Of a stretch of DNA of 60,759 nt, positions 7,091 through 60,759 are shown in pieces. Each line of letters begins with the position of its first letter. Position 1 is the first letter of the stretch. Below the pieces are notes generated by a model. That model was not told where the DNA came from, did no database searches, and saw nothing but the letters and a program-made list of their open reading frames with translations. This stretch comes from a virus. The DNA is taken from IMG/VR virus record IMGVR_UViG_3300031521_000066. One strand, 5' to 3'. The position numbers were made by a program, and so were the translations under genes.

Positions 7091-9322
7091 TCACCATTTC
7101 TCATTCTTCTTCACCTGCGGTTGATCGTACATCTCTGCATGAACCTTTAAAGCAATAGAGTAGGCTAGTGCTGAATTTACTTGATGACCTTCACGTGCAT
7201 CTACTTCTCCCGTTTCTTTCTTCCTTTCAAGATTTTTGATTTCCTCAAACACAGGCTGAGGTATTTCTTTGATCTTATTTGTCTCTATTAAGTCTTTGAG
7301 ATTGTGATATACTTCACGCCTTGTAGACTGATTCACTTCAAACCCATACTCACGCTCTCTTTTCTTGTGAATGTTGTCAACTTTGAGCCTAGAGTAGATA
7401 GAATCATACCTTGCCGCTCTGGCTTCACGAATTGCAATATGCCCCAAGTCTGTTTCTTCGTTGGCAGATTGGCCATATTCATCCTCTACGGCCACCACCA
7501 ATTTAGCAGTAGAATAAAGGGAAGCTATTTCGAGGGCTTTTTTAGCCGCTTTAAGGGGCGCAATCTCATTTGACAGGTACATTATAGGAACAGTACCATT
7601 TAACCTATCGTAGGTAAGGATTACTGTATTCCCTCCACGTTCCCCTTCACCCTTTAAAACTAGCACGGTCAAGTAACGGTAATTGTACAAGTGGTTGGGA
7701 TTATCAAATAGCATCACGTCTCCTTTATCGTTTTCTTCGTACTGTACTTTATATTTGTAGTTCTCAAAGGAAGAGGTAAGTAAACAGTTTACCCAGCCGG
7801 TTACATTATTTTCAAGGTTATTCAATGCCCAAGCTTCTATGAATGTATTCTCTGCAAAGTAGTAGTGATTGATTGCGTAGCCGAGATTGTCAACGTGTTC
7901 ATCGTGACTTGCACGGGGAAAACCGCATATTTGGGTAATGAAATTATCGTTCCAGTTGCCTTTGATGAGTTTACATCGGTGTGATTCTGCTTTAGGTTTG
8001 ATGACCTGGTGTCTAGCAGTGTGTCCCCCGGCTACCAATTTGCTTTCCTGTTTACTGTGTTCACCGATCCGGACAAAGTTATAATCTGTATCAAACTCAA
8101 TATAGTCGGCTAAAGAATTACCCGATGCTTTAGGTTCAATAAATATCCTACCTTTGTCTTTATCGAAGGTTCCATTTGCCACCAGTTCTTTTATGAAGTT
8201 GAGTAAGTCGGGAAGCTTTTTGTACACGTCCCAGGATTCTTTTACTATGATATTATTGCCTTTCCTTTTAATCAAATCTATCCCGGTTGGGTCATTGATT
8301 GTCTTTTCAGTGTAGGCAGCATCAATCCAAAGATCAAATACAATGTCATCATCGCAAGAATCGAGTATTTCAAACATACTTGGCTGTATGTCTTGTTCTT
8401 CCAAATTAAAAGGTGCTTGAAGATACTGACAAGTATAGGGGGCTGAGTTCATTTGTGCCTTTGTAATATCCAATACCTCTCTTGGTCTTCTGATTGGGTC
8501 AAGAAATCCGTTTGTGTATAAACATTCAGCATCTTTAGGAACAACAGGTGAAGCATGGGTAATCTCTGCCGGCAATGAAATTAATGTTATGTGAATATCT
8601 TTCTGTAATGTATAACCAGTTAAATCGTTTTCATGTAATCTTTGGGCTATAATAATATCAAGCCAGGAGTTAGGGTTTATATGTCTTGAGGTTAAAGTTT
8701 CAGCATCCCATTCATTCACGTGTTCACGTTCTGTATCCGATCCGGCTTGCTTTGGGTTTTGCATGTCATCCTTTGCTAAGATATGTGCATGCATCCCGGT
8801 AATTGTTCCATCAACAGAAGTATTAAATCGTTCTCCCCTGAAATTATTCTGTATCTCATTCATATTTTGAGACACAATCTCAAGTTTTTTCCCGTATTTC
8901 AATATGAAAAGGTTATCAAATAGTAAATGCCATTTATCGCTATCGGTTATAGCCCGTGCCTTTTTGGCATGACGTTCAGATAACCGGGCAGAGTATGATA
9001 TATTGGTTGAAACAATCATTGGGTTCCATAACCAAACCCACATAGGAAGTGCGATTGTAACTATTGTTGATTTAAGGGATACAGGGGGAACGTTTATGAT
9101 CAATGTCTCCATTGAGAACTCATTCCTTATAACTGGCATTACCTTTTCTTGGATAGCATCACAGATATATTTTATATAAGGAGCATCAACAAATGGTCCG
9201 CCTCCTATTTCTGTCCAAAAAGTCGTTAGAAAAACATATAACGATTTAAAGCATTCGGCCCCCCTTTTTGCCGCTTCCCGCTCTATCTCGTTCGTCCTTG
9301 CTATATCAGTGTGCGATGGCAT
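7091..9322 (-). CDS. terL: terminase large subunit
   Basis: 743 aa. It has a P-loop-like VSLKST segment, an acidic ILAKDD Walker-B-like segment, and a C-terminal DLWIDAAYTEK...DPTGI nuclease-like acidic motif. The start overlaps the upstream stop (TAATG). Confidence 0.75.
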   Translation of the reverse strand: MPSHTDIARTNEIEREAAKRGAECFKSLYVFLTTFWTEIGGGPFVDAPYIKYICDAIQEKVMPVIRNEFSMETLIINVPPVSLKSTIVTIALPMWVWLWNPMIVSTNISYSARLSERHAKKARAITDSDKWHLLFDNLFILKYGKKLEIVSQNMNEIQNNFRGERFNTSVDGTITGMHAHILAKDDMQNPKQAGSDTEREHVNEWDAETLTSRHINPNSWLDIIIAQRLHENDLTGYTLQKDIHITLISLPAEITHASPVVPKDAECLYTNGFLDPIRRPREVLDITKAQMNSAPYTCQYLQAPFNLEEQDIQPSMFEILDSCDDDIVFDLWIDAAYTEKTINDPTGIDLIKRKGNNIIVKESWDVYKKLPDLLNFIKELVANGTFDKDKGRIFIEPKASGNSLADYIEFDTDYNFVRIGEHSKQESKLVAGGHTARHQVIKPKAESHRCKLIKGNWNDNFITQICGFPRASHDEHVDNLGYAINHYYFAENTFIEAWALNNLENNVTGWVNCLLTSSFENYKYKVQYEENDKGDVMLFDNPNHLYNYRYLTVLVLKGEGERGGNTVILTYDRLNGTVPIMYLSNEIAPLKAAKKALEIASLYSTAKLVVAVEDEYGQSANEETDLGHIAIREARAARYDSIYSRLKVDNIHKKREREYGFEVNQSTRREVYHNLKDLIETNKIKEIPQPVFEEIKNLERKKETGEVDAREGHQVNSALAYSIALKVHAEMYDQPQVKKNEKW

Positions 9323-12300
9323 TATTTTATATCCCTCAATATTTGCCTTGCCCGTTCACGTTCCACTTTGGTTGTTGAGGTAGATTTGATTTTGTTCCTC
9401 AACTTCTCCATTAGGATAGGCTTAAGTGTGTTCTTCTCTTTTGAATTGGCTTTCTTATAGATGAAATAGGTCTCTTCATAACTGAAATTCTTAACAGTCC
9501 TTTCAAGACCTGTCAACTTATAGTCTTTTCTTAATTCATGATATTCTTCCTGTGTAATGTTCCCGGCTTTCTTTTCTTCCAAAGCCTTACTATCATCGCC
9601 ACCAGTCTTTCTCATTTCTTTACGAAGGTCTTTCAATAGGTCTGAATGATCTTTCTGTTCAGAGGTACGCCCACCAATAGGAAGCTTTGTTGCCTGAATG
9701 TCATAGGCTGTCTTTTCTGCCTCACTCATATTTAAGTCATAGGGAGCAGGGGTTATACCGAAGAAAGGAAGTATCTTATCCGGCAGGTCTTTATCTGCTG
9801 ATTTTTCAGCGTTACGGATACCAAAAGGAATCAATTGTTTGCCCATGAATTTTAGTTCATCCAATCCTTTTTTGTAGATAGGATCGTCTTCCTCTGTAAT
9901 CTTTGTACCATAAAAATCTTTATTGTTTTCCATTTGGTTCACAATAGAAAAAATTGGAGATAGTTTATTTGTGAGTGTTTTGCCCGGATTCGTGGTATAG
10001 TGATAAATATCTTTCATGTAAGTAGGCATTGATGAACGTGAAGGGTCTCCATTTGGTTCTGTCTCGCCTGTTTTTGGGAAGAAATAATCTTTGCCTTCAC
10101 TCGGAGCTTTACCTGTACGCAAGTATTGATAGATTGCACTAGATAGCATTGTCATACCAACAAGTGAAACAACGTAGGCTATTTTATGTGTATGGTCTGA
10201 TACCTTACCTTGTAAGGCATTTTTAGTTACTCCAAGTAGTTCTTTTGGTGCGCCACCTATTTCTCTAAATGTTCCTAAATTCCAACCTACCGACCGGACA
10301 GAAGCCATCATAATATCTTTTGCTGTTTTATTCCAAAATAAGTTATCATATACCATTTGCCCCATTCGATTATCAACAGACCTCCAAGCGTATTGAAGTG
10401 CCGCCCTTCTTTCAGTAGGTGTAGCATTTGGATGTTCATTCATTTCATAGCGTGCCATATCCATAAATACGCCTAACTTTTGACGTGGTACAACATATTC
10501 CATGATAGGTTTAGATGCTAGCTCGACAAGTTTAAGCGGGAACACAAGTCCGGCTTTAATAAATTTATGATCGGCTAAGGCATTATGAAATTGTTCTTTT
10601 GCTTTTACAGAATAGAACTTATCCATTTGTACACGACCCCCAGCCTGTTCTAAGAATTGTGCTATCTGTTTCATCTCTGGGGTTGCGGCTTCATCTCCAA
10701 ACCAAGCCTTATTTAATTTATTTCCTTGAATAATATTTGTGATAGGGGCTATTGGTGTCATTGCAAAATGTTTAGCGGCTTCTCCTAAATTACCGTTGTA
10801 CATGTATTCTAATCCAAGTCCAAACTTAGAAACTGCAGCATCCATTGAGGTGAATCCTAAGTGAAACGCAGACAATCCAAGTTGTAATTGAGTAATCGTA
10901 TTGCCAAGTCCACGATAAAGATCATAAGCATGATTACCCATTAACCCTTTTGAAAGGAAGTTGTTTAGAACTTGTGCTGCACCTTCCTGAGCATAGTAAT
11001 GACCAACGATCTGCATTCCTTCATCCGTTTTTCTCGATACAGTGCTAACCTTATCATCAATTAAAGTGAATCCTTCAGGTCTATTTGCCCCAAGACGCAC
11101 ATATTTTACCAGTCCTTCAAGTTTAAGTGTGTTGAGGGTTTTATGTGCCATAACATAACGTTCCATATCTCTCACATTTGTAAGGACAGAGGTTATAGGA
11201 TTCCAATCAACAGGTTCTAATCCTTTATCAATGCTTTCTTTATAGGTTTTAACAGTGCGCTGGTTCATCCATTGTTTAGAACCTTCGTAGGGACGTTTAC
11301 TTTTGCCTGAAAATAAAAACTGTTCTGCTTTTTTGGGGTCTTTAAATCTTCTGGGGTAATAATTTTCAATAAACTGATCAAGTTTTCCGGTTCCTAAATC
11401 CCGTACCTCATCTCTTACTTTATCTTGTAATTCCCTTAAAGCATCTGCATATCTTTGAAGGTCTTCATTGCCTTGTGGCCTGCCACCTGGAACAGAAGGG
11501 TCTTCTAATTTATCAATAAAATCAGTAGATTGCTCATGGGTCATCTTGCTAAACTTATCGGTCGCCTCTTTTAGTCGTGCTTCTGATTGATTCATTGTTC
11601 TCTCCATGTGAGACATATTCTCAGTCATATTTTCAGCAGCGATCTTTCCACTTGCCGTAGAAGAAGGGGACAGTGTATTTCTTAATGATTCTGCAAACTT
11701 GTTGTATGATTCTGCTGTCTCGGTTACGCCGGGGACATACGTTGCTGCCCTTTTTAGTTTATCTACTTTACTTGCAGCCTCACCCATCCTGTTTAAATCT
11801 TCGATAGGCTCAATAGGTTTGTTTTTAGGCTCAATAGGTGTCTGACGGAACATCGGCACCCCTTCACTCATTACAGATTGTTTCATTGAAGATGTGACAG
11901 GTAGGGATTGAACGGTTTTGTCTCCTTCTCCTTTTGGTCTTACATATCCTTCATTCTCTTTTAATAACTGATAATATCCTTCAATAGCTTGCTGCCCGGC
12001 TGTTCCCTTATCCTGTTCTATCTTACCAAGTGCTTTCTCTGTGGGTGAATAGAATCCTATGTTGGATACTTTGATTTTATCTTCCTTGTCAGCAATTCTG
12101 AATTTTACTGCCTGATCATTGAATGGCTTCTGTGTATTCCCATTTTCAAACCAGTCTTTCAACCCTTGCTTAGTGGTACGGGTGATCTGGTCTAACCCTT
12201 TCCAGTCAGCAGGGAAAGCCTTTTCATAGGTCTGTCTTGCTTTTGTTACGTTGTCAAAGCCCAACATTACCTTGTGTTCATCGAATAAGCCTGTCTTGGG

Positions 12301-15300
12301 GTTCTTCTGATCGACAACATAGATTTTATCACTTTCGGGTTTATCGCCCATGAAAACGTCTACGTGGTCCTTATCCTTGCCTTTTGTCCCCCGGAAATAA
12401 CCATAGTCGGCAGGTAGTTCACGCTCCCATTCTTTACCGTATGAATCTACACCACGCCTTATTGATCCTTTGGGGTTCTCAATTGAAATATCAAAGCCAT
12501 CAAAGCGGACGTGACCTTTCTTGTAGTTGCCCGCTTTTTTCTGTGCGTCGGTTGGATTGGTGTTTACTTCTTCGGATGCTTTGTTAATGCGGAAACGGAT
12601 GTTATCTACTGAGTAGTTGTCTTTAATGTACTGCTCTATTTCATCAGCAATTTCATCAGAAGAAGAATCTTCATCAAAAGACAAATCGGTTGATGCCCCT
12701 GCGAATTTCCCTGCTGTTGCATTTTTGTTGGCAATAACAATTGTTACATCTGGCCTTCCATTTCTGGGATTATGTGTATGGTCTGCAATGCGGATAGATA
12801 CTTCTCGGTTTTCATTATCGTTTTCATCGTACTGATCTCCGGTAATGTTTCCGTTTTTATCCACATAGACAGAAGAATATTTACCAATTTTAGTATTGAA
12901 CCGATTACCTAAATCTTTTTGAACATCATAAATTAAATCATCAGTATTGGCATTATCGGCTTCACTTTCTGCATAAGTGTAATAATCATCATCTACGGTA
13001 TATTCGTAGGTATCCTTACCTTTCAAAAAGTCGTCAATCTCATATTTAGTAATGTCTTCTGGTTTGAATTCATCGTCACCCGTATTATCAATAATTTCTT
13101 TGATTGGGATTTCTAAATGTTCAGCACTAATTGAAACCGAAGCTCCGGTGTAGTCATAATCATAAGGATTACTTTCAGCATCACTAATAGCTCTATCTAT
13201 GTTTATACTTGTACCCAAAAACTCCCCTGAATTATCCGTGTCAAACCGAGTATTGTAAACAGTAGTGCGCAGTTCGTCGCCTTTTATTTCAAAGTCTTTT
13301 CCATTATAACGCTCATGTTCCTTTTTAAAGTCAGGATTTTTAGCAATCATCCTAAACCTTATATCAGGGTTGCTTTCACTGAAGGTTCCCTGATTGCCGG
13401 TGGAGCTTTTTACTTGATTGGGACTAAATACTGCTGTTGTTGTTTGTCCATGACTTTCAGCGAGTAGTAATCCATCATATTTATACCCTTTTTCATCGAA
13501 AAATTCCTTTAAATCTTCTGCATCTGTCCAGTCGGGTAATCCTAAGTTTTGATCCAATGGAGTACCATTTCCCCATTTATTTATAAATTCACTATCAAAT
13601 ACTTTCTTGTGTTTTGGTATTCTGGTATCAAATGGATTTTCAGCCTTTAAATAAACAGGCATAATGCTTTTACCTGCCAATGTTTTAGCTTCAAGTTCCT
13701 TTTCTGCTTGCCCTACATAATGCGCTCCTTTTGCAGAACTTCCCTCGGCATACATTTCAACATATTCGGGGTTATCAGAAAAGAAAAGTATCCTATCATC
13801 CCTGAATTTATCAAAATCCCTATTTGTGGCATGATACATTACTTTAGGATTACCGTTTTCATCGGTTATCTTAGAGCTTCCAAACCAACTTTTGAATTCA
13901 GGGGTTTCGGGTAGCTTGTCGGAGAGACGGAAACGAATGAATTCACTTTGAACAGGCTTAGTTCCTTCTTGATAATAATCTCTTATGTCATTAAGTATTC
14001 TTGAAGCGGGTGTTTTTACGCCATACTCCATACTGAAAGTAGTTCCATATTGACCGGGTTCAGAATAATCAACAAGCATTCCTTGAAAATCTCTTTGTCC
14101 TTGGCTTGCGTTAATATATGAGCGAAGCGTTTTGTATTGTTCTGGTGTTGGTTCTTTTGTTACTTCGAAGCCATTTGATTCACCTTTCATTCTAATATTG
14201 CCACTTGCCATGAATTTAACCATATCCATATCAGAGTTTTCATCTGCCGAACTAATTTCCCTGTGATCTTCTGCCCTGCCTTGTGGATAAGTATTACCAT
14301 GTTTCCTACCGGAGAAGTCAAGCATAGTGCCATCATTCAATAAATAACCTGCTTCATAGAAATTATTAGTGGTTCCAACGTATCTCTTTGTTTTAGTAAT
14401 GAATTTTTGATCATCAGTTTTTTCGGCTTTTGGTTCTTTTTCTCCAAGTACTTTCTCAAATGCCTGTAAGTGGTTATCATATACCTGTCTGCTTTTAACA
14501 TTATCAGTAAAATATTTGACCCAATCAGAAGTAGGTCTTGGTGCAAATCCTTGCTTGGTTAAGTTTTTATTGATAGCATCCCATTGTTTATCTGAAATGT
14601 AAGCAGGATTATAATATCCCCTGTCTTCTACTTTTACAAATGGTGTTTTCATTAATTCAGGAATAAAATCACCTGCTTTTAATTTATCACCATCCTTTAA
14701 AACACTGTTATGATACCATTCACCATTTACTTTTACTTGATCTCGGTGTACTTCTTCTACTTCGGGCATTTTATCCTGAAGTCTCATTCTCACATTCCCT
14801 TCGCCTTTACCATTAACCTTTTGCCCCTCAGTCATCCTCTCTCTTTGCTCTTTGATGATATTTAACAAATCGTTTTGAGTAAATTGATTTGATGTTAACC
14901 CAAATGTTTTACGAACGAGATGAACCAATCTGTCAACAAAACTTTGCCATTTGGAAGGTATGGTTTCACTCTCTGAAAGATGCGATAGAAATTCATCGGC
15001 AATCATTTGCTTATCGTTATCGGCTAGATTTTCTTTACCTGAATAGTCAGGGACATAATCTTTAGCAACCTTATCAATATCTGCCGGTTCCATGCTATCA
15101 AATACATCTGACATTAAGTCATTAAACTTTGTGTATTGTCTGCCAATAATGCTTTGAGGGTCTCCGTTTGCAAATAACTCCCTTAATCCTTTGTGGTTTG
15201 CTTCATGAAGGAATGTTTTCTTTGCCTCTGATACGGCATGGATTCTATCGGATACAATGTAAATCTTTCCATCTTCAGGGTTATAAAACCCTGTCGTTTC

Positions 15301-18300
15301 TTTTCCTGCTGCAATCCTTTTCCTTTCCTCTTCCTGAACGTTCTTGGGTATCTCTGAAGAGTTGACTATTTCAACGGGTCTGTTTAACTCTGAGCTTATC
15401 TGATTGAGTGCATTGAGTGCGTTACGTTTCTCTTTTAAGTCTTCGGCTGCCTTAGCGGTTATGTTGAGTAGTTTTGGTTCTCCGGTATCCTCTTTCTTTA
15501 CACGGTAAACAAACCCATCTTCTCCTTTTACCTTTACCCTATTACCTAAGTCTTCAATGACAGTTCCATTCTTTTCATCCCCGGAAGGCGTGGTAAAAGA
15601 AACCTGTTTTGGTTTATATTTTGAGTTATCAACATTTGATTCTTGCAAATTATTTTCACCACTTTCAGTACTACCCTCTGTATTTACTGGTGTTTCAGAA
15701 GGCATTTGGTTAACATTTTCGTTATTAACATCTGAATTATTATTTTTTTCGGGAACTTTTTTAATGTTTTTAGTCGGTTCTGCTGCCTGATCAACAGGGG
15801 AAGACTGAATTTTTTTAACTTCTAATACATCGGGGTTATAAACAACTAATTCACCATCTTCATACAACCCATCATATCCCTGTTCTTTTAGCTTATCTAC
15901 TACCTCTGGATTACGTCTTAATATATCTCTTGGTAATAAGTTATCTAATGATAATCCAGCATCAATTCGTTCCTGTGCTTTGCGTTTTCCTGCTTCTGTG
16001 TTTTCGACTGCCCATTCTACGAAAGTATCTCCATATTTACCATTTGGAGTATCTTGAACTTTAAATATTTTAGCTTGTGGGGTTAATGCAACTTCAATTT
16101 TATTTTTACCATAGTTCTCTATTTTAAAAGAACCTTTTTCTTGAAGATAAAAGCCTTTACCTAACCAAGAATCACCTTGACCACTTCCGATTTTAGATAA
16201 ATCAAAACTGTCAAAATTATCTGCATTAGTTTCATGAATAAAAGTCTTATTGTTAATGTTAGGATTAATAGAAGCACCCCCTCCGGTTTGCTCTTCAGGG
16301 GTGCGTTCTGGTGATTCAGGTAATTGAGTGGAACGAGAAACATCTTCTACTGATGTAATTTCTGTTGGCTGTTCAACTTTATTTTCTGTTGCCGTACCAT
16401 TCTCCGCAACTGGTGTATTTTCCACGTTGTCGATACCTGCGTTGTCTTGCTGCTCTCCGGTTGTGTTTTCATCTTCAGTATTTTTAGGGTTCAACACATC
16501 ATCAATCTTTTGAACTTTTTCATTCAAAGTTTTAATTTCACGGGCTATATTGGCTTTTTCATTTAGGGAAGTAGATTTCAACCTCTTTGTAACGAGCTTT
16601 TCAACCTTATCTTTTGCGGCCTGTTGTAGTTCAACCAGGGTATTATTTGTTTCTTCTTCACCAAACTCTTTTGAGTATTCACGTTTAAACATTTCAGGCT
16701 CCATAGCATCATAGTCGGGAAGACCATCTTTGTCTTTTGGTATCTCCGGGTGCTGTTGCCTTAATGTTGCTTTGTCTTGTTCTACCTTAGCGGCTTCTGC
16801 CTGTTGTTGTTCCGCTTTCTGCTGTTGCTGTAATTGGATTTTTTCAGCTTCCTTTTGCTGTTCGGCCTGTAATTTCTCATCGGCTTGCTGCTTATCTACT
16901 GCATCCTTTTCAGCTTGCTTCTGTTGGTCAATAGCTGCCTTTTCAGCTTGTTTTTCAGCATCGGTCTTATATGGTTCAATATCAGCTAAAACATAATTAC
17001 CAATATGTCCTTTCTCATTCATGACAGATACCATTCCATCATCACCAATAGCGACTACTTTGGCTATACCATTGGGTGTATGAACGGATTTATCAGGAAT
17101 AATCCCCTTATCGGCGGCTTCCTGTTGTGCTTGCTGCGCTTGTAGGTATTGGTTGTCCTCCTGGTTATCGGTGGCATTACTTTTATTGTGAATATCTTCA
17201 GGTGCTTGACTTGAATAATCTGTTACCATATCAGAGCCAAATGCTTTTATCTCACCGTCTGCATTCTTGGCAAAGATAGCCCTTCCCGGTTGTCCTAAGT
17301 CTTTGCTATTTCTGATATAATATTGTTGACCGTCAATATTGGCAGTAGTTACGTTGCCGTTATCGTCTTTAAATTCATCAATGCCTTTCTGTACTTCAGC
17401 CGCTTTGGCTTTAAACATTGAATTAAGTTGAACTGAGTTTTTAAGATAATCAAGGGCTTTATAATAATCAGGTGTAGTGATATTCATTTCACCACTTATC
17501 TGATTGAAATTATTTATAATGTCTTGCGGATCGGTGTAGTTTTTAACAATGTTATCAACGGCTTCGGTGTAGTTTGCATTGGGAATATCTTTGAATTGTT
17601 CTACCGATTTGGCGTAATCATTCTTTACTTGTGTCCGTGCCTGTACGTTTCGGAAAGCATCCGCTCCTATTTGTGCTGACTTTGTCACGGCTCCAAACAT
17701 TGCCCCCGTTTCGGCTGCATCTTTAGCCGTATTCCACCAATCCTCTGGTTTAATATCCTCACCGATTAAAAATTGATTTGTTGCCTCTTTAGTTAATTGC
17801 ATTGCCTCCATAGATAACACACCATGCCCGACACCACTAGCCAGTTCCTTTACTAATTGAACAGCCTTTGTAGGTTCTTTTTCGGCAAATGAAGCAATTA
17901 CTTTAGATGCAAAGTTCTTGGCTTCCGGGTTATTTATCATTGAAGATGCAATACCATCTACAATTTTACCACCTTTAGGAAGTAATGAGCCCATATATTT
18001 ACCCATTGGAAGAGTGTATGCCAATGCGTACAAGTACCCTGCCGTATTACGGTCATCTTCATTTTCAGGAAGATTATCTTTTGCTCTCTGCTTATCGTAT
18101 TCTTGCCCTCCTTCGCCCAATCCGGACAATCCAAATAATCCAGTAGATAATCCAGCTACTTCAGCCGAACCCGTCAATGCTGATGCTACTGCCGGAACAA
18201 TAAATACAGCTGCAGACCCTAATTTTGAAGCAAGGTTATTTTTTATTGTAGGATCGGGTGCGTTCCATTGGTCTATTGATTTTCTAAATGCTGATTCAGG

Positions 18301-18834
18301 TGGTTTTTGATAACCTTTCTCACCGGGATACATATACTCACCTTTGTCATTTACTACCGCTCCGCCTGTAAGATTGTTTTGAATGTTCTTGCTTACATCG
18401 TCTAAGGCATAACCAGCATTTGCAACAAAATCTTTTGCCGTTGACTTAGCTCCTTTGACAAAATCTTCAGCAACATCTGACTGTATCGGTGTGGGCGCAA
18501 AATTACCTGAAGGTGTTAACGAAGAAACAGGGTTTACTATTTGACCAATTGGCTTAATGGCAGGAATAGGTGTTACCGGTTGGGTATTTGCCCTATCAAG
18601 GCTATCCTGAAATTGGGTGTATTGTCCCGGAGTGGATTCGGATTGCTGTGTAGGTATAAATGAAACCTTGTTTTTATACTCGGGGTATTTTTCGATGATT
18701 TTTGCAGCAAGAACGCTGTCATCTACATCTTTGTAGTCGGGATATTTTTCTTTTATCTTTTTAGAAAATTCCTGAACACTTATAGGTCTTTGTTCTTCTG
18801 CCTGATAATTTGCAGAATTTTCTTGCTCTGACAT
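9322..18834 (-). CDS. giant modular virion/ejected protein of the polyvalent-protein type (3170 aa)
   Basis: One uninterrupted 9.5-kb ORF. It contains Gly/Ala-rich hydrophobic segments, a Q/E/K coiled coil, two H-Y-E ART-like modules, an HEANH zincin, a pyrophosphatase-fold module and a long hydrophobic C-terminal region. Confidence 0.85.
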   Translation of the reverse strand: MSEQENSANYQAEEQRPISVQEFSKKIKEKYPDYKDVDDSVLAAKIIEKYPEYKNKVSFIPTQQSESTPGQYTQFQDSLDRANTQPVTPIPAIKPIGQIVNPVSSLTPSGNFAPTPIQSDVAEDFVKGAKSTAKDFVANAGYALDDVSKNIQNNLTGGAVVNDKGEYMYPGEKGYQKPPESAFRKSIDQWNAPDPTIKNNLASKLGSAAVFIVPAVASALTGSAEVAGLSTGLFGLSGLGEGGQEYDKQRAKDNLPENEDDRNTAGYLYALAYTLPMGKYMGSLLPKGGKIVDGIASSMINNPEAKNFASKVIASFAEKEPTKAVQLVKELASGVGHGVLSMEAMQLTKEATNQFLIGEDIKPEDWWNTAKDAAETGAMFGAVTKSAQIGADAFRNVQARTQVKNDYAKSVEQFKDIPNANYTEAVDNIVKNYTDPQDIINNFNQISGEMNITTPDYYKALDYLKNSVQLNSMFKAKAAEVQKGIDEFKDDNGNVTTANIDGQQYYIRNSKDLGQPGRAIFAKNADGEIKAFGSDMVTDYSSQAPEDIHNKSNATDNQEDNQYLQAQQAQQEAADKGIIPDKSVHTPNGIAKVVAIGDDGMVSVMNEKGHIGNYVLADIEPYKTDAEKQAEKAAIDQQKQAEKDAVDKQQADEKLQAEQQKEAEKIQLQQQQKAEQQQAEAAKVEQDKATLRQQHPEIPKDKDGLPDYDAMEPEMFKREYSKEFGEEETNNTLVELQQAAKDKVEKLVTKRLKSTSLNEKANIAREIKTLNEKVQKIDDVLNPKNTEDENTTGEQQDNAGIDNVENTPVAENGTATENKVEQPTEITSVEDVSRSTQLPESPERTPEEQTGGGASINPNINNKTFIHETNADNFDSFDLSKIGSGQGDSWLGKGFYLQEKGSFKIENYGKNKIEVALTPQAKIFKVQDTPNGKYGDTFVEWAVENTEAGKRKAQERIDAGLSLDNLLPRDILRRNPEVVDKLKEQGYDGLYEDGELVVYNPDVLEVKKIQSSPVDQAAEPTKNIKKVPEKNNNSDVNNENVNQMPSETPVNTEGSTESGENNLQESNVDNSKYKPKQVSFTTPSGDEKNGTVIEDLGNRVKVKGEDGFVYRVKKEDTGEPKLLNITAKAAEDLKEKRNALNALNQISSELNRPVEIVNSSEIPKNVQEEERKRIAAGKETTGFYNPEDGKIYIVSDRIHAVSEAKKTFLHEANHKGLRELFANGDPQSIIGRQYTKFNDLMSDVFDSMEPADIDKVAKDYVPDYSGKENLADNDKQMIADEFLSHLSESETIPSKWQSFVDRLVHLVRKTFGLTSNQFTQNDLLNIIKEQRERMTEGQKVNGKGEGNVRMRLQDKMPEVEEVHRDQVKVNGEWYHNSVLKDGDKLKAGDFIPELMKTPFVKVEDRGYYNPAYISDKQWDAINKNLTKQGFAPRPTSDWVKYFTDNVKSRQVYDNHLQAFEKVLGEKEPKAEKTDDQKFITKTKRYVGTTNNFYEAGYLLNDGTMLDFSGRKHGNTYPQGRAEDHREISSADENSDMDMVKFMASGNIRMKGESNGFEVTKEPTPEQYKTLRSYINASQGQRDFQGMLVDYSEPGQYGTTFSMEYGVKTPASRILNDIRDYYQEGTKPVQSEFIRFRLSDKLPETPEFKSWFGSSKITDENGNPKVMYHATNRDFDKFRDDRILFFSDNPEYVEMYAEGSSAKGAHYVGQAEKELEAKTLAGKSIMPVYLKAENPFDTRIPKHKKVFDSEFINKWGNGTPLDQNLGLPDWTDAEDLKEFFDEKGYKYDGLLLAESHGQTTTAVFSPNQVKSSTGNQGTFSESNPDIRFRMIAKNPDFKKEHERYNGKDFEIKGDELRTTVYNTRFDTDNSGEFLGTSINIDRAISDAESNPYDYDYTGASVSISAEHLEIPIKEIIDNTGDDEFKPEDITKYEIDDFLKGKDTYEYTVDDDYYTYAESEADNANTDDLIYDVQKDLGNRFNTKIGKYSSVYVDKNGNITGDQYDENDNENREVSIRIADHTHNPRNGRPDVTIVIANKNATAGKFAGASTDLSFDEDSSSDEIADEIEQYIKDNYSVDNIRFRINKASEEVNTNPTDAQKKAGNYKKGHVRFDGFDISIENPKGSIRRGVDSYGKEWERELPADYGYFRGTKGKDKDHVDVFMGDKPESDKIYVVDQKNPKTGLFDEHKVMLGFDNVTKARQTYEKAFPADWKGLDQITRTTKQGLKDWFENGNTQKPFNDQAVKFRIADKEDKIKVSNIGFYSPTEKALGKIEQDKGTAGQQAIEGYYQLLKENEGYVRPKGEGDKTVQSLPVTSSMKQSVMSEGVPMFRQTPIEPKNKPIEPIEDLNRMGEAASKVDKLKRAATYVPGVTETAESYNKFAESLRNTLSPSSTASGKIAAENMTENMSHMERTMNQSEARLKEATDKFSKMTHEQSTDFIDKLEDPSVPGGRPQGNEDLQRYADALRELQDKVRDEVRDLGTGKLDQFIENYYPRRFKDPKKAEQFLFSGKSKRPYEGSKQWMNQRTVKTYKESIDKGLEPVDWNPITSVLTNVRDMERYVMAHKTLNTLKLEGLVKYVRLGANRPEGFTLIDDKVSTVSRKTDEGMQIVGHYYAQEGAAQVLNNFLSKGLMGNHAYDLYRGLGNTITQLQLGLSAFHLGFTSMDAAVSKFGLGLEYMYNGNLGEAAKHFAMTPIAPITNIIQGNKLNKAWFGDEAATPEMKQIAQFLEQAGGRVQMDKFYSVKAKEQFHNALADHKFIKAGLVFPLKLVELASKPIMEYVVPRQKLGVFMDMARYEMNEHPNATPTERRAALQYAWRSVDNRMGQMVYDNLFWNKTAKDIMMASVRSVGWNLGTFREIGGAPKELLGVTKNALQGKVSDHTHKIAYVVSLVGMTMLSSAIYQYLRTGKAPSEGKDYFFPKTGETEPNGDPSRSSMPTYMKDIYHYTTNPGKTLTNKLSPIFSIVNQMENNKDFYGTKITEEDDPIYKKGLDELKFMGKQLIPFGIRNAEKSADKDLPDKILPFFGITPAPYDLNMSEAEKTAYDIQATKLPIGGRTSEQKDHSDLLKDLRKEMRKTGGDDSKALEEKKAGNITQEEYHELRKDYKLTGLERTVKNFSYEETYFIYKKANSKEKNTLKPILMEKLRNKIKSTSTTKVERERARQILRDIK
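12115..12537 (-). other. inorganic-pyrophosphatase-fold module of the giant protein (aa ~2100-2240)
   Basis: ISIENPKGS...LPADYGYFRGTKGKDKDHVDVFMG...IYVVDQKNPKTGLFDEHKVMLGF parallels the family I PPase pattern E.P.G / YG(Y/F) / DGDP.DVLV / D....D.K. Confidence 0.55.
13330..13857 (-). other. ART-like (H-Y-E) module 2 of the giant protein (aa ~1660-1835)
   Basis: VMYHATN ... ILFFSDN ... DGLLLAES, the arrangement seen in ADP-ribosyltransferase-like domains of polyvalent proteins. Confidence 0.45.
14800..15400 (-). other. zincin metallopeptidase module (HExxH) of the giant protein
   Basis: KKTFLHEANHKGLRELF; the HEANH codons lie at 15193-15207 (aa 1210-1214). Confidence 0.55.
15805..16257 (-). 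other. ART-like (H-Y-E) module 1 of the giant protein (aa ~860-1010)
   Basis: TFIHETN (His 867) ... GKGFYLQEK ... DGLYEDGELVVYNP. Confidence 0.4.
16745..16960 (-). other. Q/E/K/A-rich coiled-coil, low-complexity segment of the giant protein
   Basis: QQKQAEKDAVDKQQADEKLQAEQQKEAEKIQLQQQQKAEQQQAEAAKVEQ. Confidence 0.6.
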
Positions 18835-42768: not shown

Positions 42769-43578
42769 CTAAATTGATTTAAATAAATCAAAATCCCGGT
42801 TAACACAATTTACAGGTAAATCTTTACGATCTATTCCGGCTGCTTTTAAGAGAGAATCTTTGAAATATACAGGGATATTTGCTGCCTTTTTATGACACAA
42901 TCCATTTACACCTTCAATAAAATAAATCAATTCCTGTTTACTGTATTTTTCACCTGATTTCAGTCCAATTTTATATAAATCACAGAATAAATAAGAGTCA
43001 CATATCATCCTGAATGAACTATCAAAATCAATAATTGGCTCAATTGAAGCAAAAGTTTTAAAACCCAACTCATTGCTTCTTTTTAGCAGCCTTATTCTTT
43101 GATGTGTCTGGCTTGCTCCTGGTTCAAGTTCATCATGCCCCGTTAGTGTTACTCCAATAGCAATCAAATTCCTTTTAAGTAAAAATCCAAAACCATATTT
43201 AACATCATCAGATAAATTTTCCATTTTGGTGAGTATCTTGATGGGAACGTCATACTGTTGACAAATTCTAACAGCCTTAAATGTCAATCCTATTGATTGT
43301 GGCAAACAAGGATCAGTCGTGAAACTAAAGAATAATCCATGTTTCTGAAGTTCAGAAAGGTTTGCTTTTAATTCCTTTTCAAATACTTCAATAGCGTGTT
43401 CTTCGTTCTTGAAACACTTTTTTAACATTGGGATCTGCCCACCCAATACTTTTGCCCCAATACCTTTTTTCAAGTAGCAATAAGTACAATCGTTTGAACA
43501 TCCTACATAGAAATTACAAGCCCATTGAGCGTACTCTTGTGCGGAACCTTTCGGTTTATAAATTGCATTATTACTCAT
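42769..43578 (-). CDS. radical SAM enzyme (SplB/COG1533-like)
   Basis: NFYVGCSNDCTYCYLKKG contains the CX3CX2C cluster motif in the context typical of the N.Y.GC...C.YCY family. Confidence 0.65.
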   Translation of the reverse strand: MSNNAIYKPKGSAQEYAQWACNFYVGCSNDCTYCYLKKGIGAKVLGGQIPMLKKCFKNEEHAIEVFEKELKANLSELQKHGLFFSFTTDPCLPQSIGLTFKAVRICQQYDVPIKILTKMENLSDDVKYGFGFLLKRNLIAIGVTLTGHDELEPGASQTHQRIRLLKRSNELGFKTFASIEPIIDFDSSFRMICDSYLFCDLYKIGLKSGEKYSKQELIYFIEGVNGLCHKKAANIPVYFKDSLLKAAGIDRKDLPVNCVNRDFDLFKSI

Positions 43579-56254: not shown

Positions 56255-56683
56255 TTAATCGTTTGTGCCTGTTTTTGGCAGTTTAAACATTTTTGTTTGA
56301 CGTTCTTCAGGTTTAATTCTCCTGGTAGAAACAAGTAACCCTTCGCTGTTATAGTATCCGACCGTGTTTGTTTCATGGTCTACGAATTTAAAGCAATCCT
56401 CATTTACGTACTCGGACCTTTTGCGGATGCTTTCCAAAAGATTTTTTCTGCATTGATCCTTTGGTTTCATTTTTAAGTTAATCTCTTTTACAAGTTCTTT
56501 CTTCTCAATTTGAAGATCGTTTAGCTCAATAGAAACATCAGCCAGATTGTCTTTCATGGCTTCCATTTCCTCTTGTGTAAATTCACGTGTAAAACCAATG
56601 TTTTCCACTTCTGTACAGTTGGCATCAAGGAATTGAACCCTTGATACTCCTTCCGGGTATTCTAACCCTAATTGTTTTTCCAT
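56255..56683 (-). CDS. hypothetical coiled-coil protein
   Basis: 142-aa ORF with ATG start. Its start lies within the last 59 nt of the LRR gene. Confidence 0.55.
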   Translation of the reverse strand: MEKQLGLEYPEGVSRVQFLDANCTEVENIGFTREFTQEEMEAMKDNLADVSIELNDLQIEKKELVKEINLKMKPKDQCRKNLLESIRKRSEYVNEDCFKFVDHETNTVGYYNSEGLLVSTRRIKPEERQTKMFKLPKTGTND

Positions 56684-58322
56684 AATTATTTAAAAATTTG
56701 AAAATTTTATCACCAACGGTTAGGCCTTCTGGTAAGACGGTAATTCCGGTTCCTCGTAGGTAAAGAGAGCCACCAACGGTTAGGCCTTCTGGCAAAACGG
56801 TAATTCCGGTTCCTTGTATGTCAAGAGAGCCACCAACGGTTAAGTTTTCTGGCAAAACGGTAATTCCGGTTCCTCGTAGGTCAAGAGAGCCACCAACGGT
56901 TAGGCCTTCTGGCAAAACGGTAATTCCGGTTCCTTGTAGGTCAAGATTACCACCAACGGTTAAGTTTTCTGGCAAAACGGTAATTCCGGTTCCTTGTAGG
57001 TTAAGAGAGCCACCAACGGTTAGGCCTTCTGGTAAGACGGTAATTCCGGTTCCTCGTAGGTAAAGATAGCCACCAACGGTTAGGCCTTCTGGTAAGACGG
57101 TAATTCCGGTTCCTTGTAGGTAAAGAGAGCCACCAACGGTTAGGCCTTCTGGTAAGACGGTAATTCCGGTTCCTTGTAGGTCAAGATTACCACCAACGGT
57201 TAAGTTTTCTGGCAAAACGGTAATTCCGGTTCCTCGTAGGTAAAGAGAGCCACCAACGGTTAGGCCTTCTGGTAAAACGGTAATTCCGGTTCCTTGTATG
57301 TCAAGAGAGCCACCAACGGTTAGGCCTTCTGGCAAAACGGTAATTCCGGTTCCTTGTATGTCAAGATAGCCACCAACGGTTAAGTTTTCTGGCAAAACGG
57401 TAATTCCGGTTCCTTGTATGTCAAGATAGCCACCAACGGTTAGGCCTTCTGGCAAGACGGTAATTCCGGTTCCTCGTAGGTCAAGATAGCCACCAACGGT
57501 TAAGTTTTCTGGCAAAACGGTAATTCCGGTTCCTCGTAGGTAAAGAGAGCCACCAACGGTTAGGCCTTCTGGCAAAACGGTAATTCCGGTTCCTTGTATG
57601 TCAAGAGAGCCACCAACGGTTAGGCCTTCTGGCAAAACGGTAATTCCGGTTCCTTGTAGGTCAAGATAGCCACCAACGGTTAAGCCTTCTGGCAAGACGG
57701 TAATTCCGGTTCCTCGTAGGTCAAGATAGCCACCAACGGTTAAGTTTTCTGGTAAGACGGTAATTCCGGTTCCTTGTAGGTCAAGATTACCACCAACGGT
57801 TAGGCCTTCTGGCAAAACGGTAATTCCGGTTCCTTGTATGTCAAGAGAGCCACCAACGGTTAAGTTTTCTGGCAAAACAGTAATTCCGGTTCCTCGTAGG
57901 TCAAGAGAGCCACCAACGGTTAGGCCTTCTGGCAAAACGGTAATTCCGGTTCCTTGTATGTCAAGATTACCACCAACGGTTAAGTTTTCTGGTAAGACGG
58001 TAATTCCGGTTCCTCTAAGGTTTATTTTAAAATTAGAAGTCTTAAGAATTTCAGAGAAATCGAATTTTTCAGCCCAAGCCTTAGCTAATTCACTGTCATC
58101 GGTTTTATTGTTGATCTGATCGACCTTGAAAATGTTGAAGATTGGAAGAAACTCATACTTGTTTGCAACATCTTCTTTGAGACTGTGAAATAATGCAATG
58201 CTTGAGTGAGAATCAACAGTCCAATTATCGGGATTGTCTATTGCAAGCTGATTACGAGTTTCGGCATTGAAATACCGTGGTTTCCCGTCACCCATGCTTA
58301 TAAAGGAGAAAAATTCACACAT
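56625..58322 (-). CDS. leucine-rich-repeat-like protein built from ~22 tandem 20-aa repeats
   Basis: A ~105-aa unique N-terminal domain (MCEFFSFISMGDGKPRYF...), then GTGITVLPE(G/N)LTVGG(S/Y/N)L(D/Y/N)(L/I)(Q/R) repeated 21-22 times. Confidence 0.75.
   Translation of the reverse strand: MCEFFSFISMGDGKPRYFNAETRNQLAIDNPDNWTVDSHSSIALFHSLKEDVANKYEFLPIFNIFKVDQINNKTDDSELAKAWAEKFDFSEILKTSNFKINLRGTGITVLPENLTVGGNLDIQGTGITVLPEGLTVGGSLDLRGTGITVLPENLTVGGSLDIQGTGITVLPEGLTVGGNLDLQGTGITVLPENLTVGGYLDLRGTGITVLPEGLTVGGYLDLQGTGITVLPEGLTVGGSLDIQGTGITVLPEGLTVGGSLYLRGTGITVLPENLTVGGYLDLRGTGITVLPEGLTVGGYLDIQGTGITVLPENLTVGGYLDIQGTGITVLPEGLTVGGSLDIQGTGITVLPEGLTVGGSLYLRGTGITVLPENLTVGGNLDLQGTGITVLPEGLTVGGSLYLQGTGITVLPEGLTVGGYLYLRGTGITVLPEGLTVGGSLNLQGTGITVLPENLTVGGNLDLQGTGITVLPEGLTVGGSLDLRGTGITVLPENLTVGGSLDIQGTGITVLPEGLTVGGSLYLRGTGITVLPEGLTVGDKIFKFLNNYGKTIRVRIPGRSIKGSIP
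56711..58020. repeat. 60-bp tandem repeat array, ~22 near-identical copies (coding)
   Basis: Every 60-nt line from 56701 to 57961 carries caccaacggtta(g/a)g(c/t)(c/t)ttctgg(t/c)aa(g/a)acggtaattccggttcct(c/t)gta(g/t)g with few variable sites. Confidence 0.95.
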
Positions 58323-58324
58323 AA

Positions 58325-58921
58325 TTATTGTTTTATCCTGTTAATTAATATTTTCACATCTTCAATACTGATTTCAAGCTGTTCTCTTAATTGAGATAAG
58401 ATCGGTTCATCCCTTTCAACCCTTATTAATATTTGTTTCAATTTTGGGCTTGAAAATGGCATGTAGTCGATAAAATCCCATCCAGTGCAAAGTAATTGAC
58501 CATGTATTTGCCAAAAGTAAGCCTTTGGAAGTTTTTTCGTGGCAAGGTATTCGTTATAAACTTGAAATGAGGGGTTCTTAATTTCTAAGCCTCCATTTTC
58601 GCCAACTATTTTACGGTCTGGGCTAGCTCCGACAAACTCATTATATTCAAAAAAACCTACAATTTCGGTTTGATTAAATGTTAAAATCTCATAATTTTCA
58701 ACTGCAATAGGTTCTTTTTCGTGTCCCCTTTGCATCCATTTGTTAGTATAAGATTCTTCACTTTCGCCAGTCACTTGCTCATAAGCTACTTTTATAATAG
58801 CTTTTTGATAACCAACAGAATCCTTTTTCATAAACAAATCTGAAAATGTAGATGCTGTAAACTTGCCTCGCCTGACTTCATCCCATTCCTCAGAGTTTTG
58901 ATCTATGTCGTAATATTTCAT
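58325..58921 (-). CDS. YqaJ-like (lambda Exo-type, PD-(D/E)XK) recombination exonuclease
   Basis: QNSEEWDEVRRGKFTASTFSDL ... GHEKEPIAVENYE ... SPDRKI...GGLEIKNP matches the YqaJ pattern. Confidence 0.7.
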   Translation of the reverse strand: MKYYDIDQNSEEWDEVRRGKFTASTFSDLFMKKDSVGYQKAIIKVAYEQVTGESEESYTNKWMQRGHEKEPIAVENYEILTFNQTEIVGFFEYNEFVGASPDRKIVGENGGLEIKNPSFQVYNEYLATKKLPKAYFWQIHGQLLCTGWDFIDYMPFSSPKLKQILIRVERDEPILSQLREQLEISIEDVKILINRIKQ

Positions 58922-60428: not shown

Positions 60429-60759
60429 TCATATCTTGTTGATTAATGCAATTGAAATAGCTTTCTCAACTTCTTTTTTATCGAACCCTGTTATTCCGTC
60501 TTGGTTTTCATCAAAACATTGAATATCGATAATGTATGGACTATCGAAATCCAACCCCGTATAAATAGTACATTTTACGTCAGATATAGGATACTGTTTA
60601 TTACGGTTGACAAATTCAATATCTTGAAATAGATAGGGTTCATCATGGTCTCCGTAAAGTGTTTTGATTGGTGTTGACAATTCCAAATCCAATAATACAA
60701 CCGGTTTGGTTAATCTTGCCAATGTTCTAAAAACATCCGCACAAATGTTCTCAAAAACA
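60429..60759 (-). CDS. hypothetical protein, 3-prime part of the junction-spanning gene (continues upstream at 128..234)
   Basis: The ORF is open to the window end. The track's M at 60722 is an internal TTG (Leu), and the true ATG is at position 234 of the circle. Confidence 0.6.
   Translation of the reverse strand, partial: VFENICADVFRTLARLTKPVVLLDLELSTPIKTLYGDHDEPYLFQDIEFVNRNKQYPISDVKCTIYTGLDFDSPYIIDIQCFDENQDGITGFDKKEVEKAISIALINKI
60633..60759. repeat. 127-bp terminal direct repeat (copy of 1..127)
   Basis: Verbatim identity with bases 1-127. Confidence 0.9.

Follow-up and report, generated by a model that had tools for sequence, protein, structure and literature searches.

A putative early-operon phage gene pairing an undescribed N-terminal head with a predicted LRR solenoid of about 22 turns

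FlrP is an LRR protein on the rod of the Vibrio polar flagellar motor and has been described as a β-solenoid (bioRxiv 10.64898/2025.12.04.692373). It has 199 residues, is periplasmic with a Sec signal peptide, and presents a positively charged surface; its repeats have diverged from one another. The effectors SlrP, SspH1/2, and IpaH, which combine an LRR with an NEL E3 ligase, belong to the bacterial short-LRR class. New anti-defense and host-takeover proteins come mainly from the early regions of phages, and most have been found singly.

Here we analyzed a gene in the virus record IMGVR_UViG_3300031521_000066, a stretch of 60,759 nt (the window). Its product is of the same short-LRR class as the effectors, and it shares with FlrP (PDB 8Z5U/8Z5W/8Z60) the 20-residue unit type LPxGLxVGGxLxLxxTxI. 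Its lack of a signal peptide, strong acidity, 22 near-identical units, and head domain set it apart from FlrP. Our leading reading is of an intact early-operon gene for a two-part cytoplasmic protein, in which an undescribed head would precede an acidic LRR solenoid of about 22 turns whose units recombine. We regard this reading as evenly balanced between right and wrong.

Gene architecture and predicted fold

The gene is open for 565 codons across the repeat array, where the other five frames contain 11 to 43 stops. The features of the gene and its surroundings are as follows.

58325..58921, minus strand: YqaJ-type recombination exonuclease gene, the upstream neighbor (Pfam PF09588, E 1e-23; PHROG exonuclease)
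56625..58322, minus strand: whole ORF of 565 aa, with head domain, LRR array, and short tail; the sole open frame through the array
58035..58322, minus strand: N-terminal head domain, aa 1 to 96, starting MCEFFS (protein-family alignment and AF2)
58014..58034, minus strand: N-terminal solenoid cap strand, aa 97 to 103 (NFKINLR), a degenerate xLxLx (AF2 strand at aa 100 to 105)
56754..58013, minus strand: 21 full 60-bp LRR units (TRF and unit alignment)
56712..56753, minus strand: partial unit 22 of 14 aa (GTGITVLPEGLTVG), leading into the C-terminal cap GDKIFKF
56625..56711, minus strand: C-terminal tail, aa 538 to 565 (net charge +6), and stop codon; the last 59 nt overlap the next gene
56255..56683, minus strand: downstream neighbor, a conserved phage protein of 142 aa, phrog_12688 (start confirmed by a full-length PHROG match and by the 80%-identical relative in phage L004)
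55494-56252: protein next after the 142-aa gene; its relatives carry the annotation DUF2303 in deposited phage records
54853-55431: DnaA_C-type HTH gene

TRF identified a single array at 56711-58014, with a period of 60, 21.7 copies, 90% matches, and 0% indels. It consists of 21 full units and one partial unit, and the 20-aa period is exact 21 times. The full units span aa 104 to 523 and have the consensus GTGITVLPE(G/N)LTVGG(S/Y/N)L(D/Y/N)(L/I)(Q/R). Their mean pairwise DNA identity is 91.5%, and they occur in 17 distinct DNA versions. The first-pass annotation had described about 22 near-identical 60-bp tandem repeats in one gene, encoding a short bacterial LRR unit of 20 residues. The copy number, the open frame, and the HMM matches given below all support this description, and its unit consensus is exact.

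Judged by sequence, the repeats are 20-residue LRRs of the bacterial type. HMM searches matched them to FlrP (E 5.5e-31; the alignment to PDB 8Z5U spans 161 residues) and to the effectors SlrP (E 3.2e-9), SspH2, and IpaH, with E values from 3e-9 to 2e-3 for the effectors. FlrP is the nearest relative of solved structure. The alignment to SlrP pairs sLdLrgtgItvLPenL with tLiLdnneLksLPenL. The conserved segment ..VGGxLxLxGTGIxxLP.. fits the LxxLxLxx(N/T)xL-type definition of an LRR, which has a 20- to 29-residue unit. Pfam LRR_14 matched the window protein at E 1.5e-7 and 31 bits, against a curated cut-off of 40. Only the LRR part aligned to the effectors, and neither Pfam nor NCBIfam gave an NEL match in the window protein.

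The array is predicted to fold as a rod-like solenoid with one coil per unit. A single-sequence AF2 model was a regular β-solenoid with a pLDDT of 85 to 94 over aa 140 to 520. The same three strands recur in every unit, and the long strand is formed by positions 17 to 20 plus positions 1 and 2 of the next unit. Foldseek matched the solenoid model to FlrP with a probability of 1.0, a TM score of 0.58, and 32% identity, and this was the sole confident fold match. The solenoid expected at first pass is thus what AlphaFold predicts. The array has a net charge of -29 and a pI of 4.05; all turns contain Glu9, and 15 of the 21 contain Asp18.

Both ends of the array resemble those of relatives. The site of the cap strand reads G.Y.LDL in related proteins. 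We considered whether an insertion had truncated the C terminus, given that the array stops mid-unit and the gene overlaps the next one. We rejected this idea, since other head-plus-LRR proteins finish likewise with a short ..KI(Y/F)K cap (..KIYK, ..EIYR, or ..KIIR soon after the array).

The head domain family and its genomic setting

The unique N-terminal part was at first taken to be about 105 residues long and unrecognized. It is 103 residues long, and most of it is a conserved phage domain, although the head sequence does lack matches in Pfam and PHROG, and a profile search of PDB sequences was empty. We rejected an orphan origin: none of 120 repeat homologues has this N terminus and a word-indexed search gave one relative, but an exhaustive HMMER protein search then gave 281 representative clusters at E≤1e-3, 70 of them at ≤1e-10. 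The head is always at the extreme N terminus and always begins MCxFFS. The alignment of the family has eight invariant residues (M1, Cys2, Ser6, Ser38, His39, Asp51, Asn54, and Glu57), all present in the window protein. The window protein starts with the conserved MCxFFS strand and shows nothing like a signal peptide there.

A motif scan found the head in 52 IMG/VR viral contigs and in just 7 MAG contigs from 185,579 genomes. As far as sequence searches reach, the head is a previously undescribed, phage-restricted family, nearly confined to uncultured phages. An AF2 model built on the family alignment predicted an α/β fold (pLDDT 95.2, pTM 0.86), and a fold search with it against PDB and BFVD returned nothing above a probability of 0.12. 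Cys2, His39, and Asp51 are presumed, from the secondary-structure pattern, to lie close together. Other family members join the head to SVxx tetrapeptides, to different LRRs, to ankyrin, or to DUF4116. At least the LRR and ankyrin partners are classic protein-binding scaffolds. At one locus (L013), a pentapeptide-repeat ORF adjoins the head-domain gene.

The LRR gene lies in an early/replication block with the YqaJ exonuclease gene, the DnaA_C HTH gene, and a primase-helicase, and its reported place between the exonuclease and other early genes is borne out by the Pfam match and the nearby HTH gene. It is codirectional with its neighbors and tightly packed, 2 nt from the stop of the YqaJ gene and overlapping the next gene by 59 nt. 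No terminator was found close to it. We found 30 sigma-70-like promoter matches where about 20 are expected by chance; they are not concentrated at the gene, and the scan modeled sigma-70-like promoters rather than those of Bacteroidota, the most likely hosts of this phage. One match just upstream of the start (58377-58350, 9/12) is within chance. Because it lacks its own terminator and the upstream promoter match is within chance, the gene appears to sit inside an early operon, and we rejected the idea of a moron with its own promoter and terminator.

The GC content rises from 35% to 48% at the array. However, GC3 is 0.34 in the array and 0.28 to 0.37 in the neighboring genes. A foreign origin was therefore rejected, and the bump reflects amino-acid composition. 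The pair formed by the 142-aa gene and the DUF2303-type gene is kept in related phages without the LRR gene at this position. Directly upstream of the 142-aa gene, phages L004 and L005 carry an ORF with a metallo-β-lactamase fold, and L006 carries an SSB gene. These different occupants fit an accessory gene. PADLOC gave no match.

The charge and location of the protein could also be read as those of a DNA mimic. An acidic solenoid might imitate the phosphate backbone, as in Gam, Ocr, ArdA, and pentapeptide-repeat proteins, and block a host DNA-end nuclease or restriction enzyme so that recombination and replication intermediates are protected. The strongly acidic composition is shared by 93% of homologous arrays, and the gene directly follows that of the YqaJ exonuclease. 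In Edwardsiella phage Edno5, a relative is found just upstream of exoVIII/RecT, and in EBPR podovirus 1 another is found just upstream of RecT/exo; this is the position of lambda gam. The pentapeptide-repeat ORF at L013 points the same way. However, the other C-terminal modules of the head family are not acidic (median charge, +0.14 per 20 aa), and just 1 of the 52 head-domain loci had an exonuclease/annealase match. The same count led us to reject a general tie of the head family to recombination genes; an SSB gene is nearby at 14 of the 52 loci. Both the mimicry and the proposed block of a nuclease or restriction enzyme are, in our judgment, improbable.

Copy number and variation of the array

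In contigs from other samples, the gene is present with 0, 4, or 5 full units, compared with 21 in the window. These contigs are 98.7 to 100% identical to the window in the aligned pieces, array overlap included, and the head and tail DNA of the 0-, 4-, and 5-unit alleles is 100% identical to that of the window. Each short allele can be built exactly, as a mosaic, from the window array by taking out one or two in-frame stretches in multiples of 60 nt. Every unit in them is identical to a window unit, so no new variants were seen. The first-pass annotation had proposed that copy number is prone to change. This is supported, because near-identical contigs differ by in-frame whole-unit deletions. 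The zero-unit allele is present on three long contigs, which indicates that the array can be dispensed with in at least some settings; the head and tail may be the functional core. The exact DNA of the gene was not found in IMG/VR, and a megablast of the region against deposited phages gave no match.

All of these sequences are short-read assemblies, and MEGAHIT produced the short alleles as k141 contigs. Assemblers classically fail at tandem repeats and could have created the copy number of the window, or of the shorter contigs, while walking the repeat. In short-read viromes, arrays of this sort are collapsed or interrupt contigs, and the deposited record of EBPR podovirus 1 begins within one that is unannotated there. 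The ends of the window bear a direct repeat of 127 nt, as is usual when a circular genome is assembled by de Bruijn graph at k=127. In addition, if column 15 of unit 3 were C rather than the singleton T, the identity between units 2-3 and 19-20 would extend over about 169 bases, giving a shortcut of the kind in contig L007. However, the longest exact repeat within the window array is 106 nt, shorter than 127. Every 127-mer is therefore unique, the path is unambiguous, and the long array is internally consistent. In the zero-unit allele, only 42 nt of repeat separates unique flanks, so the spanning k-mers must exist in the reads, and this allele was assembled three times. All short alleles also keep the unit order of the window. 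We consider an assembly artifact distinctly unlikely.

Across the units, variation is limited to 12 of the 60 nucleotide columns. Of these, seven are nonsynonymous and fall in codons 10 (G/N), 16 (S/Y/N), 18 (D/Y/N), 19 (L/I), and 20 (Q/R); the other five are synonymous and fall in codons 5, 6, 7, 11, and 15. All four gametes are present at 47 of 66 site pairs, which makes evident the shuffling between units and the concerted evolution suggested at first pass. In LRR complexes, ligand contacts are made by the x residues of xLxLx. Residues 16, 18, and 20 are predicted to lie surface-exposed on the main β-strand, on the face that LRR proteins use for ligands; this placement rests on the secondary-structure pattern and LRR precedent. 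Positions 16, 20, and 18 also have the highest within-protein entropy across 113 homologous proteins.

The earlier claim was that nearly all variation falls at the x positions of xLxLx and in the G/N after LPE. It stands for the xLxLx positions as the most variable sites, both here and in the homologues. It does not stand as a count, because position 19 belongs to the buried core and position 10 is off the main strand, leaving three of the five variable residues. Silent variation is present too. Variation from turn to turn in one protein is not equal to diversifying selection between alleles.

Targeted mutagenesis by a diversity-generating retroelement (DGR) would be another source of variable codons. 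A is among the alleles at all seven nonsynonymous columns, and the codons seen at positions 10, 16, and 18 include AAC/AAT. However, no second copy of the unit was found elsewhere in the window, and none of the 10 mid-size ORFs tested, a subset of the ORFs, had a reverse transcriptase match. Each site has two or three alleles that recur and are shuffled between units, and AA always switches jointly to GG in codon 10. A DGR origin is close to refuted.

A neutral or decaying accessory gene, with an expanded repeat of no selected function that is being lost by deletion, would agree with the zero-unit allele being the one most often assembled (three contigs) and with the other genes that related phages hold at this position. 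However, the frame is intact over 1.3 kb, and 15 of the 20 codons have no amino-acid change, four of them despite silent changes. Variation at the same positions and between the same types of residue recurs in over 100 independent homologues, and the head domain is strongly conserved. Neutral decay is thus a doubtful explanation, to which we assign a small probability.

Proposed role and comparison with known systems

The array looks like a fast-changing protein-binding module, because near-identical genomes carry 0, 4, 5, or 21 repeats. Plausibly, the protein binds a host protein in the cytoplasm, for takeover or anti-defense, with the conserved head as the effector. In this scenario, the near-identical 60-bp units would recombine with one another and shuffle their variants. 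Recombination would also delete, and presumably add, whole units in frame, with the result that natural populations would hold alleles of 0 to 21 units. The solenoid would bind a host protein or a host defense protein early in infection, while the head would contribute an unchanging function, perhaps Cys-His catalysis or else recruitment. The binding surface would then be retuned or lost through unequal recombination.

The gene points to a whole family in which a constant, structurally unmatched head is joined to a swappable repeat module. A broader and rather unlikely proposal casts the MCxFFS head as a new small enzyme or recruitment domain whose active site would combine the N-terminal Cys with His39/Asp51. 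Combined with interchangeable LRR, ankyrin, DUF4116, and SVxx scaffolds, it would form programmable host-targeting or anti-defense effectors whose specificity is reset by unequal recombination in the array. If so, the series from 0 to 21 units would be that process caught in nature. The alleles offer a case from nature of a phage gene gaining and losing repeats in frame, and they make the role of the head, the target of the solenoid, and the relation of array length to host range directly testable.

The family shares its design logic with the bacterial LRR-NEL effectors, in which a variable LRR module for binding is coupled to a constant domain that has a catalytic Cys; for the window head, the role of the Cys is putative. 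One homologue of the window array (P0034) carries an NEL domain (Pfam E 8e-44). Unlike that of the NEL effectors, the constant domain of the window protein is N-terminal, has 96 aa, and is unrelated in sequence and fold, and the protein is a phage product synthesized within the cell rather than injected.

The uncharacterized Edno5 gp47-like family (Edwardsiella phage Edno5, Flavobacterium sp. SUN046, and Methylocystis parvus) has a short N terminus, 8 to 12 GTGIT-type units, and a C-terminal domain of about 170 aa. Its units are 60 to 79% identical to those of the window, its arrays are near-perfect and acidic, and positions 16, 18, and 20 vary with S/Y, D/Y, and R/E/Q. However, the C-terminal domain has about 150 to 180 aa in most members and about 90 aa in Edno5 gp47, whereas the window protein ends 28 aa past its array. 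The head was found in none of the best 120 homologues, and the Edno5 gp47-like family also occurs in bacterial genomes.

Lamprey variable lymphocyte receptors are LRR solenoids with diversity concentrated at concave strand positions, and they are assembled from shuffled LRR cassettes in which Tyr, Ser, Asn, and Asp abound. Their likeness to the window protein is an analogy, with homology limited to the LRR fold; the phage protein has no dedicated assembly machinery, and its variation lies between turns of one protein. Size-variable repeat genes (group B streptococcal alpha C/Rib, Mycoplasma Vlp, and yeast FLO) likewise have in-frame, near-identical repeats whose number shifts among close relatives by recombination between the repeats. 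Unlike these contingency-type loci, the window gene encodes an intracellular protein rather than a surface antigen, and its length differences are known here as sequence alleles. Among phages, a copy-number "accordion" is reported for T4 tifA (bioRxiv 10.1101/2022.04.14.488369). There, the whole gene is amplified, whereas in the window gene the repeated units lie within the gene.

The repeat array and its predicted fold

Tandem Repeats Finder returned a single array at 56711-58014, with a period of 60, 21.7 copies, 90% matches, and zero indels. The minus-strand ORF at 56625-58322 is open for 565 codons, and the five other frames of the array contain 11 to 43 stop codons. The LRR gene is intact, and we consider it quite unlikely to be a neutral gene in decay. 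The parts of its product are as follows.

N-terminal part: 103 unique residues
Array: 21 full units plus one 14-residue partial unit, GTGITVLPE(G/N)LTVGG(S/Y/N)L(D/Y/N)(L/I)(Q/R)
Tail: 28 residues, basic

Twelve of the 60 nucleotide columns of the unit vary. Seven are non-synonymous, located in codons 10, 16, 18, 19, and 20, and five are synonymous, in codons 5, 6, 7, 11, and 15. The first-pass annotation described the array correctly, apart from two small points: some of the variation is silent, and neither position 10 nor position 19 belongs to the xLxLx surface. The units have a mean pairwise identity of 91.5%. Because all four gametes are present in 47 of 66 pairs of variable columns, shuffling of the variants between units is evident. 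The GC content of the array is 48% versus 35%, with a GC3 (0.34) similar to that of its neighbours; the GC bump arises from the Gly/Thr/Pro content. Mutagenesis by a diversity-generating retroelement was rejected, as the template copy is absent from the window and no reverse transcriptase was found among 10 ORFs tested.

The sole Pfam match to the array was LRR_14, below threshold (31 bits versus a cut-off of 40). Against solved structures, the sequence matched the Vibrio LRR protein in 8Z5U (E 5.5e-31) and also the LRR domains of SlrP (E 3e-9), SspH2, SspH1, and IpaH. The 8Z5U protein, FlrP, is attached to the polar flagellar motor at its rod and is a beta-solenoid built of LRRs (bioRxiv 10.64898/2025.12.04.692373). 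AlphaFold2, run on the single sequence, predicted the regular solenoid that had been expected, with three strands per unit and a pLDDT of 85-94. The only confident PDB match of this model in Foldseek was FlrP (probability 1.0, 32% identity, TM 0.58 normalised to FlrP). By homology and prediction, the array is a putative LRR solenoid. Its long strand comprises unit positions 17-20 and positions 1-2 of the following unit. Positions 16, 18, and 20 are predicted to flank the buried L17 and L19 on this strand, and LRR precedent suggests that they face the ligand. Within-protein entropy, taken across 113 homologues, is highest at positions 16 (1.76 bits), 20 (1.62), 18 (1.38), and 1 (1.29), and the preferred residues at 16, 18, and 20 agree (S/Y/N/D, D/Y/N, and R/S/E/Q). 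In terms of the model, variation appears to concentrate on the face of the long strand.

Searching 5.8 billion proteins yielded 366 relatives of the array, every one matched through the repeats; none of the top 120 of the 366 shares the N-terminus of the window protein. They have several architectures. The dominant one combines a short N-terminal part and 8-12 units with a C-terminal domain of ~170 aa that carries no annotation; it is seen in Flavobacterium sp. SUN046 and Methylocystis parvus proteins and, in a shorter form, in Edwardsiella phage Edno5 gp47. Some of the other relatives have a PcfJ-like N-terminus, and one (P0034) has a genuine NEL E3-ligase domain (Pfam E 8e-44).

Edno5 is a temperate phage, and its gp47 (4983-5726 on L001), annotated as a hypothetical protein, has 7-8 GTGITALPDGLSVGG units whose variable positions correspond to those of the window array (S/Y, D/Y, E/R). 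The gene is followed, 0.6 kb downstream, by exoVIII and RecT. The record of EBPR podovirus 1 (JF412294) opens inside an unannotated LRR-type ORF (1-735 on L002) whose repeats are 20-aa GCDLTGITLPTSIGGSLDLS units, with RecT and exo located downstream; its assembly probably broke within the array. The ~170-aa domain C-terminal to the LRR array in most homologues (P0012, P0029, P0090, P0014) is conserved, with motifs including YIKVDGIF, HAHGDTLxEA, and ITGACxxGT, and had no match in local Pfam and PHROG libraries. PF27023 appears somewhere in the precomputed annotations of four homologues (P0011, P0014, P0020, P0075). In P0010, the same LRR unit is fused to ToxN toxin and SpoVG domains, possibly by a gene-call fusion.

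Copy-number alleles in a near-identical phage

Four proteins that cluster together, three of 145, 225, and 245 aa plus a fragment of 71 aa, have exactly the N-terminus of the window protein. The allele contigs are MEGAHIT k141 assemblies from three ENA analyses and represent the same phage: alignment to the window gives pieces of 98.7-100% identity, and mismatches fall mostly within pieces overlapping the array. In every allele, the head and tail match the window DNA at 100% identity, and the array is an exact mosaic of the window array.

Array alleles, in window gene coordinates
L007: 225 aa; 4 full units; [0-443]+[1463-1698]
L060: 145 aa; 0 full units; [0-336]+[1596-1698]; on three contigs
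L061: 245 aa; 5 full units; [0-353]+[593-723]+[1443-1698]; two deletions

L007 lacks 17 units; the deletion runs between units 2 and 19, which are identical, and has an exact overlap of 79 nt. This junction could be an assembly shortcut if unit 3 in that sample is without the singleton T at column 15. The window has an exact 127-nt direct repeat at its ends (1-127 and 60633-60759). It thus represents a complete phage genome, either circular or circularly permuted, that was assembled at k=127 and has a true length of ~60,632 bp. Since the longest exact repeat within the array is 106 nt, the long array is an unambiguous assembly path. The 0-unit allele has just 42 nt of repeat separating its unique flanks; the reads must therefore contain the k-mers that span it. 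We regard an assembly artefact as unlikely. Judging from these sequences, the polymorphism in length is most probably real, and the predicted copy-number instability is supported by contigs of this phage carrying 0, 4, or 5 full units versus 21 in the window.

The head domain and its repeat partners

The N-terminus, at first called unrecognised, is instead a conserved domain. In an exhaustive HMMER search, residues 1-103 matched 281 representative clusters at E<=1e-3 (70 at E<=1e-10), always at the extreme N-terminus. M1, C2, S6, S38, H39, D51, N54, and E57 are invariant, and F4, F5, F18, R23, D37, I42, K55, D68, N71, and D76 are at least 90% conserved. AlphaFold2 with the family alignment gave a confident model (pLDDT 95.2, pTM 0.86) ordered as a strand, two helices, a beta-hairpin, and two helices. 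The best fold match in PDB and BFVD had a probability of only 0.12. The sequence had zero matches in PDB, Pfam, PHROGs, NCBIfam, and PADLOC, and newer precomputed Pfam annotations and source names were likewise empty. Together with His39 and Asp51/Glu57, the invariant Cys at the N-terminus would suit a candidate catalytic triad or metal site.

A degenerate DNA motif for NKYE(Y/F)xPx4Fx2DQIN was found in 52 IMG/VR viral contigs, versus just seven contigs of 185,579 species genomes. All seven are MAG contigs, three of them equal in length to IMG/VR viral contigs. Therefore, the head domain appears to be phage-specific and essentially confined to uncultured phages.

Nearly every fusion partner of the head is a tandem repeat. 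About 45 of the 52 viral loci have (W/R/G)(D/A)SV four-residue arrays that lead into either a small ..VPSFDGxxWRLH domain or DUF6745. Other heads are fused to LRR-like arrays (19-24-residue units around (V/I)GGxLxL), DUF4116, ankyrin, or NSGNW repeats, and others. LRR and ankyrin repeats are classic binding scaffolds, and the head is thus modularly fused to repeats that include them. The head-domain relatives nearest to the window protein (P0122, P0123, P0125, P0126) are all LRR fusions, and P0215 shares its 20-residue GTGIT unit. Head-LRR relatives end soon after the array in a short ..KI(Y/F)K strand, as does the window protein (GDKIFKF), so its C-terminus is native.

The (W/R/G)(D/A)SV arrays are long, differ widely in length from contig to contig, and are followed by a conserved ..AYxSSFF...LWxxGLVPSFDGxxWRLH domain (L008-L059, e.g. 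L024, L018); we know of no description of this four-residue repeat. On one contig (L013), a 205-aa pentapeptide-repeat ORF (ADLQYADLEGADLRSADL..) lies immediately upstream of the head-domain gene, with an 8-nt start overlap. The pentapeptide-repeat fold is known for DNA mimicry.

Genomic setting and proposed role

The window encodes terminase, portal, major head protein, and primase-helicase, and is a phage genome. The cultured phages most closely related to it infect Riemerella, Croceibacter, Chryseobacterium, Cellulophaga, and Bacteroides, which makes a Bacteroidota host probable. Two other ORFs are listed here.

9322-18834, minus strand: 3170-aa ORF, probably an injected or virion-associated giant protein; residues ~2035-2440 match PHROGs for endolysin, virion structural protein, minor head protein, and DarB-like antirestriction
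42769-43578, minus strand: 269-aa ORF; radical SAM match below threshold (E 5e-6, 27.2 bits versus a cut-off of 29.5)

The LRR gene is part of an early block of co-directional genes, and its start is 2 nt past the stop of the YqaJ exonuclease gene. Its end overlaps the start of a downstream 142-aa gene by 59 nt (56625-56683) in a different frame, unchanged in all four alleles. No terminator was found near the LRR gene, and sigma-70-like promoter matches are not concentrated there. Related phages keep the downstream pair of 142-aa and DUF2303 genes, and upstream of it a metallo-beta-lactamase-fold gene or SSB replaces the LRR gene.

The window array is acidic (net charge -29, pI 4.05), as are 93% of homologous arrays, whereas FlrP is basic. 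This charge, and a gam-like position beside recombination genes in three phages, would suit a DNA mimic that blocks a nuclease. However, proximity to recombination genes is not general across the head family, and we find such a mimic distinctly improbable. We suggest instead that the window protein works at an early stage of infection, in the cytoplasm. In this scenario, the solenoid would bind a host or defence protein, the head domain would supply a constant activity, and recombination between units would reset the binding surface.

The repeat type and fold were already known. What is new is an LRR array combined with an undescribed, structurally unmatched head domain, the pairing of that head with many interchangeable repeat arrays almost exclusively in phages, and a natural allele series of 0 to 21 units. 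A constant effector domain joined to a variable LRR binding module is a known design, and the window protein would be a new version of it.
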